A DNA stretch of 64,000 nucleotides from Candidatus Latescibacterota bacterium (GCA_965243025.1 CBDETY010000003.1:1-64000); one strand, 5' to 3'; shown: positions 14,900-32,911, counted from the first letter of the stretch. A program made the numbers and translations. The notes: generated by a model not told the origin, from the letters alone.

Positions 14900-15789
14900 G
14901 GGTGCTGGTCTCCGGGTCGACAGGCCTGATCGGGTCGCAGCTCGTCCCCATGCTGGCGAACCGCGGCCACACCGTGGTCCGGCTGGTGCGCCGGGCTCCG
15001 GCGGCAGGGGAGGAGGAGGTGAGGTGGGACCCCGCAACCGGGGTGCTCGACGGGCAGGACCTGCAGGGAATCGACGCCGCCGTCCACCTGGCGGGAGAAT
15101 CGATCACGCGGCGCTGGACCCCGGCCCGCAAGCGGCGTCTTCGCGACAGCCGCATCGACGGCACCCGCCTTCTGTGCGAGACCCTTGCCCGCCTCGACCC
15201 GCTTCCGAAGGTTCTCGTCAGCATGTCCGCTGTCGGCTACTACGGAGACCGCGGCGGCGAAGAGCTGACCGAGGAGAGCCCCCCGGGCAGCGGCTTCCTC
15301 GCCGAAGTCGGCAGCGACTGGGAGGCGGCCACCGGGGCGGCCGCCGGCTGCGGGATCCGGGTTGTTCTCACCCGCCTCGGGGTGGTGCTGACGCCCCGCG
15401 GCGGGGCACTGGCGAGGATGCTGCCGGCCTTCAGGCTCGGCCTCGGAGGCCGCCTCGGCAGCGGCGATCAGTTCATCAGCTGGATCAGTCTCGAAGATGC
15501 CCTGAGGGGGATCTTCTTTGCCCTGGAGACAGGCTCGATCTCCGGGCCGGTCAACCTCGCGGCCCCCGCTCCGGTCACGAACCGCGCCTTCACCGCGGCA
15601 CTGGCGCGGGCCCTGCGCCGCCCGGCGCTGTTTCCAGTCCCGGCCGTCCTGCTCGAGCTGGTTCTCGGCGAGATGGCGCGGGAGCTGCTGCTCGCCAGCA
15701 CGAGGGCGCGGCCCCGCGCCCTCCTCGAGTCCGGGTTCACCTTCCGGCATACCGACATCGACGACACCTTCGCCGCCCTGCTGCGGTAG
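14896..15789 (+). CDS. TIGR01777/YfcH-like SDR oxidoreductase
   Basis: SGSTGLIG, HLAGE, SAVGYYG, GLGGRLGSGDQFISWI. ATGA overlap with the upstream gene. Confidence 0.9.
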   Translation: MRVLVSGSTGLIGSQLVPMLANRGHTVVRLVRRAPAAGEEEVRWDPATGVLDGQDLQGIDAAVHLAGESITRRWTPARKRRLRDSRIDGTRLLCETLARLDPLPKVLVSMSAVGYYGDRGGEELTEESPPGSGFLAEVGSDWEAATGAAAGCGIRVVLTRLGVVLTPRGGALARMLPAFRLGLGGRLGSGDQFISWISLEDALRGIFFALETGSISGPVNLAAPAPVTNRAFTAALARALRRPALFPVPAVLLELVLGEMARELLLASTRARPRALLESGFTFRHTDIDDTFAALLR

Positions 15790-15795
15790 GAGGCT

Positions 15796-16191
15796 TCAGA
15801 CCGGGGGCAGACGCCAGGGAAAGAACAGGGTGCCGAGCAGCAGCAGGATGGTAATGGCGAAGGCCGCCAGGATCGACTGCAACTGGAGGCGCCCCGCTTT
15901 GCGGCGGAGCCCCTCTGCCAGCTCCTGGTCGTGGATCGGCTCGGTTCCTCCCGGGGTAGCGCGTGCACCACGCGCCGCCAGCAGCACTCAGGTCGACCCG
16001 CGGGCCTGCAACAGGCAGTTGATCCCCAGCACGAGCGGCAGGAAGACGGCGACGCGCAGCGGCAGGGGGCTGTCGGTCACGGTGACCAGGGCGGTGAAGC
16101 CGAGGGCGAAACAGCAGAGCAGACTTCCGATGAAGATGCGGAAGCGCCTGCCGTCCTCCCCGATGTTGCTCAGGTCCGGGCTGCCGGTCAC
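15796..16191 (-). CDS. Putative membrane selenoprotein (in-frame UGA at 15988-15990)
   Basis: Two abutting same-frame ORFs joined by one TGA (LQARGST-U-VLLAARG). Hydrophobic helices lie on both sides, a SECIS-like hairpin follows, and the GTG start is 7 nt after the upstream stop. Confidence 0.72.
15959..15975 (-). promoter_or_regulatory. Candidate bacterial SECIS hairpin
   Basis: Minus strand: UGA-N12-GCGCGU-GGUGC-ACGCGC. G-led loop about 19 nt after UGA. Confidence 0.62.
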
Positions 16192-16198
16192 GAGTTGG

Positions 16199-17149
16199 TC
16201 AGTCCGAACTGATGCCGTGGCGGATCCAGTCGCGGATTGCCGCTGCGGTCTCCCCGGGATATTCGAGATGCGGGACGTGCCCGCAGTCGTCGAAGACATG
16301 CAGCTTCGCGGCCGGCAGATCCGCTTCGAAGCGGAGGGCGTTGAGGGCAGGCACGATGCGGTCCTGACGTCCCCAGACGATCAGGGCCGGCAGCGGCATC
16401 CCGGGGTACCTGTCGGTAAAGGTGTCGATGTCGGGCGGGGTCAGGTTGCGCACCGTCATCCGGTAAGAGAAGGGCGTGCCCGGCATGGCGAAGTATTCGA
16501 CCGCCCGGTCGACAAGCCGCTCCGGTATCCTGCGGGGGTCGAAGAAGATGCGGGAATAGGTCGAGCCCGCGAACCGGCGCGCCAGGCCGCTGGCCACCGC
16601 CAGCCGCTGCAAGGTGGGGTTCAGCAGAAGGGCCCCCGGTTTTCCAGCGAGGAGCGGGACGAACCCCGGTAGCCGCTGCGGGTATCCGACGGCGGAGATC
16701 AGCACCAGTCCGCGCAGGTCCAGACCCACCGCCCAGGGGCGCTCCTGCGGATCGGAGCAGGCGAGCCGCAGGGCGATGGCCCCGCCGAGGGAGTTGCCGA
16801 CGAGGATGAGGCGGTCGAGCTCGAGGACGCGGATGAACTCTCCGACGTAGGCCGCCAGCCGGTCGAGGCAGTAGCGCTCGTGCTCGGGCAGGGACCGGAA
16901 GCGAGGTCTGCTGCTCTCCCCGAAGCCGACCAGGTCGAGGGCGACCGTCCGGAAGCGCTCCCCGAGAAAGGGCTGCATCAGCTCCCAGGTCCCCTTGTGG
17001 TCGAAGAGGCCGTGCAGCAGCAGCAGCGTGCAGTCGGCGGACAGGTTGCCGTTGTCGGCGCAGGCCACCTCGACGGGAAAACCGTCGTCGCGGCCGACGA
17101 CGACCCTGTAGGTGCTCGCGAATGGGAGGGAAGGGGCGGGCGCTTCCAC
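16199..17149 (-). CDS. Alpha/beta hydrolase
   Basis: LLHG, DLVGFGES, GNSLGG nucleophile elbow, WGRQD, GHVPHLE. Confidence 0.9.
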   Translation of the reverse strand: MEAPAPSLPFASTYRVVVGRDDGFPVEVACADNGNLSADCTLLLLHGLFDHKGTWELMQPFLGERFRTVALDLVGFGESSRPRFRSLPEHERYCLDRLAAYVGEFIRVLELDRLILVGNSLGGAIALRLACSDPQERPWAVGLDLRGLVLISAVGYPQRLPGFVPLLAGKPGALLLNPTLQRLAVASGLARRFAGSTYSRIFFDPRRIPERLVDRAVEYFAMPGTPFSYRMTVRNLTPPDIDTFTDRYPGMPLPALIVWGRQDRIVPALNALRFEADLPAAKLHVFDDCGHVPHLEYPGETAAAIRDWIRHGISSD

Positions 17150-17151
17150 CG

Positions 17152-18054
17152 CTACCCGGCGCCGGCCAGAACGGCGTCGATCGCCCCGAGCTCGTCGCCG
17201 CTGAAACGGACGCCGACGGCGCCGAGGTGGTCGTCGAGCTGACCGGGGTTCTTGGCGCCGACCAGGACCGTGCTGATCGCCGGCAGCCGCAGGATCCAGG
17301 CGATCGCCAGCTGCACCAGCGACAGCCCCTTGTCCGCCGCGAGCTCCGCAAGGCGGTCGGCGACCGCCACGGTGCGCGCGAACTGCTCCCCCTGGAAGTG
17401 TGCCCGCTCCGAGCGGTAATCGTCGTCGGCGAAGCGGTGCCCCGGCCGGTACCTGCCGGTCAGCAAGCCCTGTCCCAGCGGGCTGTACGCGAGGATGCCG
17501 ATGCCGTGCCCGGCGCAGAACGGGATGTCCTCCGCCTCGATGCCGCGGTCGAGCAGGTTGTAGCCGGGCTGGACCGACTGGAAGGGGGCGGTCTCCATGG
17601 CCCGGGCCATCTGCGCGGCGTTGTAGTTGGAGACGCCGATGTAGCGGGTCTTCCCCTCCTGGCGCAGCCGCTCCATCGCCTCCATGCTGGCCTCCACCGG
17701 GTATTCCGGGTTCCAGCCGTGGATCTGGTAGAGGTCGACATGGTCGACGGCGAGCTGCCGCAGGCTGTTCTCGATGGCGGCGCGGATCGCCCGGGGCGAG
17801 AAGTCGCCGCTCACCTTGGTCGCCAGGAAGCAGCGCTCGCGGTAGCCGCCGGCAAGGGCGCGTCCGACGATGCGCTCGCTGGCGCGGTAGCCCTGTGCCG
17901 TGTCGACCATGGTGATGCCGCGGTCGATGGCGGCGCGCACGGTGGCGACGGCCACCTCTTCGTCGACCGCGCCCATGGCCCCGCCGAAGGGCCAGGCCCC
18001 GAGGGCGATCGCGGGAACCTGCGGGCCGTTTCTTCCCAGCTGTCGATACTCCAT
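17152..18054 (-). CDS. Aldo/keto reductase
   Basis: DTAQGY, ATK, DLYQIH, IGVSNY, YSPLGQGLLTG. AGGAG RBS. Confidence 0.93.
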   Translation of the reverse strand: MEYRQLGRNGPQVPAIALGAWPFGGAMGAVDEEVAVATVRAAIDRGITMVDTAQGYRASERIVGRALAGGYRERCFLATKVSGDFSPRAIRAAIENSLRQLAVDHVDLYQIHGWNPEYPVEASMEAMERLRQEGKTRYIGVSNYNAAQMARAMETAPFQSVQPGYNLLDRGIEAEDIPFCAGHGIGILAYSPLGQGLLTGRYRPGHRFADDDYRSERAHFQGEQFARTVAVADRLAELAADKGLSLVQLAIAWILRLPAISTVLVGAKNPGQLDDHLGAVGVRFSGDELGAIDAVLAGAG

Positions 18055-18065
18055 GTGCACAGCTC

Positions 18066-18791
18066 CTACATCAGGTTCAGCCAGTCGCCGAGGAGGAACC
18101 TCGCGCGGCCGATCAGCAGCGACAGCCGCGCCATGATCGTGTACCCGAAGGAAGCGCCGAAGGAGATCATCAGCACCCAGACCCCCAGCTTCGAGACCAT
18201 GCCGACGGCGCCGCGGTGCTCGACGGAAAAGAAAAAGTAGACCAGCACTGAAACGACGCCGACAAGGATGATGAACAGGTCTAGGCCCGCCCAGGACAGG
18301 GTGATCGGCTGCAGGGTCGGTTCCACCTGTTTCAGGATGAAGGTCGAGATGTAGGCGGGGATCGTGAAGCCGGCCCCGAGGCCGACGAAGAACCCGAAGG
18401 CGATGCGGCTGGTCCAGCCGATGCGGGTGCTGAACCGGGTGAGCATCAGGATCCCGAGGACGGTGGGGAAAAGAACGAGCCAGGCGTTCTCCTTCCAGGC
18501 GCCGGCGTCCCCGAGCCGGGTGAGCTTGTCGATCACCTCGCCGTAGATGGTCGGGTACCAGGTCTGGCCGAACACGTAGGCCGCGGCGACGCCGACGAAG
18601 ATGTGCTCGGCGAGCTTGAACAGGGGGTTGTCGCGGTAGAGGAAGCTGTAGAGGGCCAGGGTAAGGCCGGCGGCGACGATAATCCCGAAGCCGGTCCAGT
18701 CGGGGCTGAGCTTGCCGGCGGCGAACAGGTAGGCGTTGGCCAGAGCGAAGAACAGCAGGACGGCGAGGAAGAGGATGGAATCGCGGTTCAT
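18066..18791 (-). CDS. Multi-pass membrane protein of GlmL-like operon
   Basis: About 7 hydrophobic helices; YSFLYRDNPLFKLAEHIFVG, FGASFGYTIMAR. ATGA-coupled to the upstream gene. Confidence 0.8.
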   Translation of the reverse strand: MNRDSILFLAVLLFFALANAYLFAAGKLSPDWTGFGIIVAAGLTLALYSFLYRDNPLFKLAEHIFVGVAAAYVFGQTWYPTIYGEVIDKLTRLGDAGAWKENAWLVLFPTVLGILMLTRFSTRIGWTSRIAFGFFVGLGAGFTIPAYISTFILKQVEPTLQPITLSWAGLDLFIILVGVVSVLVYFFFSVEHRGAVGMVSKLGVWVLMISFGASFGYTIMARLSLLIGRARFLLGDWLNLM

Positions 18792-19627
18792 TCCGGCCGT
18801 CTCCGCTGCCGGTGGCGAGCCGCGAAATAGGCGGCGTTCCCGACGAGGATGAAGAGGACGATGATCAGGTGGGTGACCGACTGGGCGCTCATTCCAGCGG
18901 ACGCTCCGCCGGGGTGGTCGATCAGCGCTTCGTATTCCGCGGCGCCGACCAGGCCCCCGATGAGGCCGCGCATCTGCCCCGACTGCAGGAACGGGTAGAG
19001 ATCCGGAGCCATCACCGCGGTGCAGCCGGCGGCGAAGGCGAGGTTGTGCCTTTCCTGACCGAACGGCAGCCACCAGAACTCGATGGAATCGCCGGCCGCC
19101 AGGTCGATCACCAGGTCGAAGTCCGAGAGACCGGCGACGGCCGCGGTCAGCGGCACCTCGGCGGTGGCGGTGCCCCAGTTGTCCTTCGGAAAGGCGTCGG
19201 CGAAGTCCTGGCCCATGTTGATGATGACGCTGTAGGTGCCTGGTTTGTACCCCATGAAGGCGTAATCATCGCCGTAGGTCTTTCCGAACTCCGCCGCGGT
19301 CTCCTCGAGCGCCAGCTGGGCGAGACCGGGGGCTTCCGGCCACAGGCAGACGGCGACGACGCCGACGTCTCTGCTGAAGAGGTGACGCAGCAGCGCCTTG
19401 GCCATCGGCTGCATTTCCGGTTCGGTGCTTGCTCCGTAGGCGAAGGAGAGCAGGACGAGGGCGCGGTCCTCCTTGCCCGCCACTTTCTCGATCTCGTCGA
19501 ATACCGCCCTGACCTGTTTCTTCGGCTCGACGGGAAACTTCAGATTCGACAGCAGGGGTATGGCGACCCCGAGAAAGACGGCGACGAAGATGATGCGCCG
19601 GTCGATGCCGAGAAGCCGGTCGATCAT
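18788..19627 (-). CDS. Membrane-anchored protein of GlmL-like operon
   Basis: N- and C-terminal TMs around an alpha/beta domain; PFLQSGQMRGLIGGLVGAAEYE. Stop/start overlaps. Confidence 0.8.
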   Translation of the reverse strand: MIDRLLGIDRRIIFVAVFLGVAIPLLSNLKFPVEPKKQVRAVFDEIEKVAGKEDRALVLLSFAYGASTEPEMQPMAKALLRHLFSRDVGVVAVCLWPEAPGLAQLALEETAAEFGKTYGDDYAFMGYKPGTYSVIINMGQDFADAFPKDNWGTATAEVPLTAAVAGLSDFDLVIDLAAGDSIEFWWLPFGQERHNLAFAAGCTAVMAPDLYPFLQSGQMRGLIGGLVGAAEYEALIDHPGGASAGMSAQSVTHLIIVLFILVGNAAYFAARHRQRRRPE

Positions 19628-31858: not shown

Positions 31859-32911
31859 ATGGCCCTGTCGAAAGACAAAACCCTGACCAGCCTCGCCAAG
31901 ACCTGCGGGTGAGCGGCCAAGGCGAGCCCGGTCGGGCTCGAGAAGCTGTTGGCCCGCCTGCCGCGCAAGTCGGACCCCAACCTCCTGGTCGGGTTCGAGA
32001 CCAGCGACGACGCCGGCGTCTACCGGCTCGGGGAGGACACGGCGATGGTCGTCACCGCGGACTTCATCACGCCGCCGGTAGACGACCCGTTCACCTTCGG
32101 CCAGATCGGCGCCGCCAACTCCCTGAGCGACGTGTACGCGATGGGGGGGCGGCCGGTCGCCTGCCTCAACCTGATCGGGTTCCCTTCGGACGATCTCGGC
32201 CCCGAGGTGCTGCACGGTATCGTCGAAGGGGCGCTGAGCAAGATCACCGAGGCCGGGGCGGTGCTGGCCGGCGGCCACACCACCAACGACGACGAGCCGA
32301 AGTTCGGCCTCTCGGTCACCGGGCTGGTGCACCCGGACAGGTACTGGCGCAACGCCGGGGCCCTTGCCGGGGACGCCCTGATACTGACCAAGCCGATCGG
32401 CAGCGGCGTGATCTTCAACGCCAACCTGAAAGGCATGCTTCCCCGCCAAGCCCTGGAGGAGACCCTCGCCGTGCTGACCGACCTGAACAGGACGGCGGCC
32501 GAGACCCTGGCCCGGTTCGACGTGCACGCGGCGACCGACATCACCGGCTTCGGGCTCGCCGGCCACGCCCTGGAGATGGCCCGGGGATCCGGGGTGACCC
32601 TCGAAATCGACGTCGACTCGCTGCCGACCCTGCCGCGGGCCCTGGAGATGTACGAGCGCGGCGTCACCACCGGGGCGAACGCGGAAAACCGCGAGCAGGT
32701 CGGGGAGGCGGCCCTGTACGAGAAGGAGCTTCCGGGAAAGCAGGGGGAGATCCTGGTCGACCCGCAGACGAGCGGGGGCCTGTTCGCCGCGGTTCCCCAA
32801 GCCCAGGCCGCCGCGGCGGTCGACGCCCTGCACGAGGCCGGCGTCGAGGCGGCCTGCATCGCCGGCCGCGCCGTCGACCTTTCGCCGCCGCACTACCTGA
32901 AGTTCCGGTAG
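31859..32911 (+). CDS. selD: Selenide, water dikinase SelD/SenC; selenoprotein (Sec at codon 18)
   Basis: MALSKDKTLTSLAKTCG-TGA(31910-31912)-AAK is in frame with track ORF 31949..32911. DDAGVY, DFITP, SDVYAMGG, GGHT, TDITGFG, DPQTSGGL. Confidence 0.93.
31923..31940 (+). promoter_or_regulatory. SECIS-like hairpin of selD
   Basis: UGA-N10-CGAGCCC-GGUC-GGGCUCG, a perfect 7-bp stem with a G-led loop. Confidence 0.8.

Follow-up and report, generated by a model that had tools for sequence, protein, structure and literature searches.

E. coli fdhF is the prototype of the bacterial selenoproteins that depend on SelB and a SECIS element, and the minimal E. coli SECIS obeys an 11-nt spacing rule. Table 1 of PMC13188914 (May 2026) lists 119 selenoprotein families and subfamilies, nearly all of which are defined by Pfam, NCBIfam, CDD or PTHR models, and includes the CxU type of rhodanese as a selenoprotein. 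E. coli YgaP is a dimeric membrane sulfurtransferase in which a rhodanese domain is carried on a two-helix anchor (PMC4730233). Here we describe a gene in a 64,000-nucleotide stretch of DNA from a Candidatus Latescibacterota bacterium (the window), for which an original prediction had proposed a hidden membrane selenoprotein. With the bacterial SECIS selenoproteins, represented by E. coli fdhF and by the selD gene of the window itself, the locus shares an in-frame UGA in the position of a conserved Cys, a stem-loop 11–12 nt after that UGA with a G opening the apical loop, and the presence of selA, selB, selC and selD. It differs from them in that the hairpin of the window family is short (6–7 bp), lies wholly within the codons for AARGxR and varies in register by lineage, and in that its loop is the Gly codon GGN, compared with GGUC in selD. 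The recoding mechanism is the ordinary bacterial one, and what is new is the protein family. Based on comparison of sequences, we consider it highly likely that this is a genuine selenoprotein gene belonging to a widespread and uncatalogued family of membrane proteins.

As originally described, ORFs 15988–16299 and 15796–15987 on the minus strand share one frame and have a single TGA as their sole separation; reading through this TGA as U from the GTG start gives a protein of 131 residues, with U68 in the motif LQARGST-U-VLLAARG and a second TGA as its end (feature table). The two small ORFs very probably constitute one gene for a 131-residue inner-membrane protein in which the UGA would encode selenocysteine (Sec). 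The GTG lies 7 nt downstream of the stop codon of an alpha/beta-hydrolase gene (16199–16201), and two same-genus relatives have in-frame stops 2 and 6 codons upstream of the same GTG. Because of these in-frame stops and the upstream hydrolase stop, we take the GTG at 16191 as the start and reject as the gene a longer, ATG-initiated ORF. The GTG start is likely to be translationally coupled to the upstream hydrolase gene.

Feature table. Coordinates of the proposed selenoprotein gene, its elements and neighbours in the window, and of related fusion loci in other genomes.
Feature	Position	Strand	Remarks
Whole gene	15796..16191	-	131 codons plus stop, with UGA-68 proposed to be read as selenocysteine; three membrane helices predicted
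GTG start codon	16189..16191	-	Same GTG in two same-genus relatives
In-frame TGA, codon 68, proposed selenocysteine codon	15988..15990	-	Aligned column is TGA/Cys
SECIS-like hairpin	15959..15975	-	Nt 16–32 counted from the U of the UGA; 12-nt spacer
True stop TGA	15796..15798	-	Without hairpin context; relatives stop at the same place by TGA, TAG or TAA
Alpha/beta-fold hydrolase gene, upstream	16199..17149	-	PF00561, PF12697; directly upstream in 12/19 phylum loci
Aldo/keto reductase gene, further upstream	17152..18060	-	PF00248; beside the gene or the hydrolase in 5/19 loci
Fusion loci	L085:1616-2980 (+); L061, L066, L071, L083, L091, L109, L129, L131		Two in-frame TGAs each

The identity of residue 68 was assessed among relatives at increasing distance. 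A search with the single protein found one close relative, labelled Candidatus Latescibacterota, and a word-indexed protein search gave four matches, with 74-aa fragments that are 88–89% identical to the first half of the query. When the read-through protein was searched in six frames over 61 related genomes, matches were obtained in 20, one of which is spurious (L045). The codon aligned to U68 in the 19 true phylum relatives is TGA in seven (the window, two same-genus genomes, G016, G003, G026 and G015) and Cys in 12, never any other residue, and the alignment of these sequences has five invariant columns: N9, R18, C/U68, V69 and G75. The original prediction had considered that homologues might end at the TGA, and this is not what was found: the half downstream of the UGA is conserved, the third hydrophobic helix aligns in all 19 sequences, and two of the invariant positions, V69 and G75, lie in this half. 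Using the alignment as a query identified the gene in 28 of 168 genomes of the phylum, of which eight have TGA and 20 do not. We then ran a profile built from the 19 sequences against 1.84 billion protein cluster representatives; it matched 1840 clusters at E≤1e-3 (503 of these at E≤1e-10), nearly all about 120 aa long and with a Cys at the column in question. Among the best 150 of the 1840, the U68 column contains Cys in 143, Asp in two and Gly in two, and in two entries, P0121 (67 aa) and P0128 (74 aa), only the N-terminal part is present, up to the residue just before this column. In a few full-length members (P0013, P0047 and P0070 in alignment A2) the Cys that is conserved elsewhere is replaced by Ser, Gly or Asp; either some lineages can do without the residue, or these copies serve another role.

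Family members are about 120–135 aa long and share two motifs: NIGxxxRxxR, which precedes helix 1, and FQA+xxT[C/U]VxLAA+G, which follows directly on helix 2. The sole source name that we encountered for family entries is "hypothetical protein", and the look-alikes of the Cys homologue P0004 in the ESM Atlas were all "hypothetical protein" clusters without Pfam assignment. No Pfam model scored over its cut-off for the window protein, the 19 members or 10 representatives; no NCBIfam model matched the window protein at E≤1, and no NCBIfam selenoprotein model matched any of 40 representatives. Of the Pfam and NCBIfam models given in Table 1 of PMC13188914, none matched the family. The proposal that the protein belongs outside the classic selenoprotein families thus stands as far as the Pfam and NCBIfam models, including those of that table, are concerned. 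A family with well over a thousand sequence clusters has neither name nor model, and its Sec forms are invisible in databases, where they are stored as fragments of 67 to 74 residues. Recognising the family would add to the bacterial selenoproteome a membrane-embedded protein with a single Sec and neither a CxxU nor a UxxC motif.

The hairpin described in the original prediction, GCGCGU-GGUGC-ACGCGC, is present and begins 12 nt after the UGA; it can be drawn with a 6-bp stem and the loop GGUGC, or with a 7-bp stem, GCGCGUG/CACGCGC, and the loop GUG. Nucleotides 12–36 have a folding energy of -14.7 kcal/mol, and the 69-nt fold of the window has z = 0.15 relative to shuffles, which is unremarkable in G+C-rich DNA; it is only through comparison with other sequences that the feature, with its TGA/Cys column and its hairpin, exceeds chance. 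For the hairpin, the comparison was made between 83 Sec-form sequences, gapless over 42 nt from the UGA (alignment A3), and 24 Cys forms that share the residue pattern. Of the five core pairs, 16-30 to 20-26, all are present in 58 Sec forms and four in the remaining 25, giving at least four of five in 83/83, versus 12/24 for the Cys forms (no pair in one, one in three, two in two, three in six, four in nine and five in three). The Ala codon that takes part in pairing is GCG in 78/83 Sec forms versus 15/24 Cys forms (Fisher p = 3e-4, a value that overstates the difference because the sequences are related), whereas the unpaired neighbouring Ala codon, an internal control, is GCG in 33/83 versus 6/24 (p = 0.23). 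The variable codon (the x of the motif) ends in G in 77/83 Sec and 15/24 Cys forms, and the codon after it is CGC in 72/83 and 11/24, respectively. A register-independent measure, the local folding energy of nt 12–36, averages -10.5 kcal/mol for Sec forms versus -6.76 kcal/mol for Cys forms (p = 3.7e-7, again overstated by relatedness), with values of -8 kcal/mol or lower in 72/83 and 8/24. Pairing holds for 87.0% of the cells in the Sec alignment, and in 18 cells both sides have changed, a number reached in 0 of 500 shuffles. Slid registers pair nearly as well as this 87.0% (80.7% at -2 and 70.7% at +2), and the hairpin region is an alternating G/C run that is imposed partly by the residues AARGxR. 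Taken together, the codon and energy comparisons show that Sec forms keep the hairpin partly via synonymous codon choice, and that Cys forms do so much less.

The window hairpin is in the +2 register, which is used by 16 of the 83 Sec sequences. The register first drawn is that of the window's genus, and in most of the family the 3' arm is shifted by 2 nt; the two G of the invariant Gly codon are always in or at the hairpin loop. At the protein level, 79/83 Sec forms but only 13/24 Cys forms have Arg nine residues beyond U/C, and the LAARGxR motif is more uniform in Sec than in Cys forms. The RNA signal thus seems to constrain the protein sequence, and a SECIS hairpin written into the codons for AARGxR would be a clear case of such a constraint. 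The hairpin, by fixing the motif in Sec forms, may also account for part of the excess of Sec over Cys forms described below.

The original prediction called for confirmation of selA, selB and selC in the genome. We searched the window's own genome (6.8 Mb in three contigs), and all four components of the machinery exceed their curated cut-offs: selA (533.7 bits), selB (320.2 bits), tRNA-Sec (69.7 bits, located outside the window) and selD, which lies inside the window at 31883–32806 on the plus strand (TIGR00476, 361.8 bits). The selD gene has one in-frame TGA, at 31910–31912, and is itself a selenoprotein gene in this genome. Its hairpin, which had served as the comparison for the one studied here, is real: GAGCCC-GGUC-GGGCUC, 11 nt 3' of its UGA and with a GGUC loop. 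Within the window, ARAGORN found no tRNA, and no Rfam family reached its gathering score; since even the selD hairpin is unmatched, Rfam is uninformative for bacterial SECIS elements. All eight Sec-form genomes of the phylum have selA, as do all five that were sampled elsewhere, and it was also found in 20/20 Cys-form carriers of the phylum and 3/5 Cys-form genomes from other phyla; as Cys-form carriers have selA too, its co-occurrence is necessary but not discriminating. One Cys-form carrier with selA is L181, labelled Melghirimyces thermohalophilus DSM 45514. We propose that SelB and Sec-tRNA(Sec) would read UGA-68 as selenocysteine in the standard bacterial way, the codon standing at a nearly invariant Cys position and being followed by a 12-nt spacer and then by a conserved G+C hairpin whose loop starts with G.

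To gauge how far the Sec forms extend, a DNA pattern back-translated from QAxxxT-U-VxLAAxG with TGA at the U position was searched in one genome each for about 185,000 species. At least 118 stretches, each in a species genome, contain the pattern, compared with an estimate of about four expected by chance. Judged by a whole-length family model, 79 of the 80 TGA loci listed are true members, with E-values from 1.8e-17 to 1.3e-59 and matches to both halves; the remaining one, L073, is spurious. Phylum labels of the listed true TGA loci number at least 14, among them Gemmatimonadota, Rokuibacteriota/Methylomirabilota, Chloroflexota, Acidobacteriota and Binatota. When the TGA of the pattern is replaced by TGY, only 32 stretches match, of which 24 are true, and for the QAxxxT-[U/C]-VxLAAxG variant there are more Sec than Cys forms. 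A provisional tree of 114 rows, built quickly with FastTree and leaving out six loci missed by the loose pattern and two duplicates, would need at least 15 changes between Sec and Cys. Many phyla contain Sec forms, which gene callers routinely split into two, and recognising the family would correct the annotation in more than 100 species genomes.

An AlphaFold2 model based on 124 aligned sequences (pLDDT 95.3, pTM 0.85) contains helices at residues 12–38, 43–47, 50–65 and 69–73, a beta-hairpin at 76–85 and a helix at 89–123. The earlier placement of Sec at the membrane interface fits this prediction, in which U68 lies between helix 50–65 and the short helix 69–73. By the positive-inside rule, basic residues of membrane proteins face the cytoplasm. 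Such residues occur in the N-terminal flank of helix 1 and throughout the 66–100 loop, and because of them the N-terminus and U68 would be at the cytoplasmic face of the membrane, followed by the small beta-hairpin and the third helix. Foldseek with the predicted model gave no match in the PDB at E≤0.001, and the best VIA-align hits (Z up to 7.2) are generic helical bundles, within the range expected for unrelated helical models. A homodimer prediction on natural Cys homologues (A5) had a score of 0.00 and gave no verdict.

Comparison with the YgaP-like transmembrane domain (PF11127, DUF2892) reveals several likenesses. In each case a small helical membrane domain carries N-[IV]-G-x-x-x-R-x-x-R ahead of helix 1 and a single conserved Cys immediately after helix 2, and each is associated with rhodanese, which is fused in YgaP and in nine related loci of the window family. 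The window family differs by its third helix, its beta-hairpin and its motif, which is T-C/U-V-x-L-A-A-R-G and not C-P/G-x-x. The window protein scores 14.9 bits with PF11127, below the cut-off of 25.3, and the model matches none of the other 18 aligned members and 0/10 representatives at E≤1. An hhalign comparison of 166 family rows with a small profile of eight DUF2892 sequences from related genomes gave a probability of 3.5%, over 18 N-terminal columns only. Given the sub-threshold PF11127 score and the hhalign result, homology to DUF2892 is not established. Full-text literature searches found nothing that joins DUF2892 to a selenoprotein, and for YgaP with selenocysteine only irrelevant papers.

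The nine loci just mentioned, out of 79 verified listed Sec loci, encode the family domain followed, beyond its third helix, by a VTT/DedA domain (PF09335, 56.2 bits) and then by a rhodanese domain (PF00581, 47.1 bits), with the second in-frame TGA lying in the rhodanese, in LYCS-U-PNE. Among NCBIfam models, NF041203 ("rhodanese-related (seleno)protein") comes nearest to the fused rhodanese, with a score of 79 bits that is below its cut-off of 115. The likeness to the NF041203 type is thus confined to the C-terminal domain of L085-type proteins with its LYCS-U-PNE, at a sub-cut-off score, and concerns a fusion partner in other genomes, as distinct from the window gene itself. Despite their different phylum labels the nine fusion sequences are very similar, and so they count as roughly one event. 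A search for longer proteins with alignment A5 found no fused Cys forms, which is weak evidence against their existence. The full-text literature contained nothing that joins selenocysteine, DedA and rhodanese, noting that the supplementary tables of surveys might hold an unnamed candidate. Gene callers would split the fusion proteins into three pieces.

What might the protein do? The original prediction suggested redox or metal handling as possible roles; the one functional lead that emerged, the natural fusions to DedA and rhodanese, points to transfer of sulfur or selenium. The family alignments contain no second conserved Cys (a Cys three residues before the NIG motif is present in some lineages only), which makes a CxxC-like dithiol mechanism unlikely. 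Because of this, and because of the fusion to DedA and a selenocysteine-type rhodanese in one lineage, we favour a relay, in which the single selenolate or thiolate passes on sulfane sulfur or selenium, as persulfide or perselenide, with rhodanese-type partners; U68 at the cytoplasmic membrane face would take up the sulfur or selenium and hand it on. This assignment is tentative, with a probability of perhaps a third. The window neighbours, a hydrolase and an aldo/keto reductase, carry no sulfur or selenium information. The DedA-rhodanese fusion provides a testable link from a membrane selenoprotein to sulfur/selenium trafficking. The in vivo selenium donor of SelD is described as still unsettled in PMC13188914. 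In a broader and distinctly speculative version of the relay, which we regard as improbable in its entirety, selenocysteine, as opposed to cysteine, would be the usual and perhaps the ancestral state of the family in many lineages found in soil or groundwater or as symbionts, and a membrane-face relay with DedA-type domains and CxU rhodaneses would move selenium or sulfane sulfur, possibly feeding SelD.

The main rival to a sulfur/selenium relay is metal or metalloid handling: the protein would be a real selenoprotein whose selenolate serves as a ligand by which Hg, Cu, As, Se or Te is bound, sensed or transported, perhaps within a homo-oligomer. A single conserved Cys/Sec at the membrane face without a CxxC-type partner would suit such a ligand, as would the fact that DedA, the domain fused in nine loci, is a membrane-transporter family; in addition, the membrane selenoproteins in Table 1 of PMC13188914 include the metal-handling mercuric transport protein, cation ATPase and SO_0444. 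However, a census of the neighbours of 107 loci showed no recurrent metal-resistance genes beside the gene, and the fused partner includes a rhodanese, pointing to sulfur/selenium transfer. We consider a metal ligand a possible but on balance unlikely role.

It could also be that UGA-68 is a plain stop and that there are two separate genes, of 67 and 63 aa, the second of which restarts at the adjacent GTG. The codon after the TGA in the window is indeed GTG, a possible start, and gene callers give the halves separately, as in the 67- and 74-aa entries P0121, P0128, P0002 and P0003. In 25 of the 83 Sec forms, however, the TGA is followed by GTC, GTA or GTT, which cannot serve as starts, so that a restart at this position cannot be general. 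The original prediction had allowed for homologues in the form of two independent genes; instead, the Cys forms are uninterrupted single genes across the same junction. Moreover, in at least 79 species the break coincides exactly with the invariant Cys column, and synonymous choices preserve the hairpin, making a plain stop very improbable. A comparably slim chance applies to read-through of the UGA without selenocysteine, in which near-cognate decoding or a reassigned code would insert Cys, Trp or Gly. Low-level UGA read-through occurs in bacteria. Against this reading, TGA is the ordinary stop of the gene itself and of the upstream hydrolase neighbour, which excludes a reassigned code, a position-specific hairpin at SECIS spacing is conserved, and selA is present in 13/13 Sec-form genomes tested. 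A pseudogene, arising from a recent nonsense change of a Cys codon or from a sequencing error there, can practically be dismissed: TGA is one base from TGC or TGT, but this TGA recurs in both same-genus relatives, in eight genomes of the phylum and in the 79 verified listed loci of many phyla, the downstream half is conserved, and a contig from an independent sequencing run (X5) is identical over 15874–16038, with the UGA included.

A second contig, X20, comes from a sponge metatranscriptome library and corresponds to 15791–16073; it spans the UGA and both halves at about 96% identity, with 11 differences, which is not proof of transcription. Part of the hydrolase gene is uncovered in both X20 and X5. 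DNA nearly identical to 15600–17200 is present in assembled contigs of several studies, and the labels of partial holders include sponge, coral and marine metagenome, which is not proof of habitat.

With regard to genomic context, no partner is common across phyla in the 107-locus census: a hydrolase is present in 11 loci and a receiver-domain protein in 14, the latter perhaps by chance as this is a common family. In the window, the selenoprotein gene is probably the last in an operon with the aldo/keto reductase and the alpha/beta hydrolase. The order aldo/keto reductase, alpha/beta hydrolase, selenoprotein gene is conserved, and in several phylum loci the hydrolase stop and the next start are a few bases apart. 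Finally, a multi-helix membrane protein without a Pfam or NCBIfam match is encoded upstream of the reductase (18066–19073, minus strand), and it recurs beside the cluster in L029 and L032.
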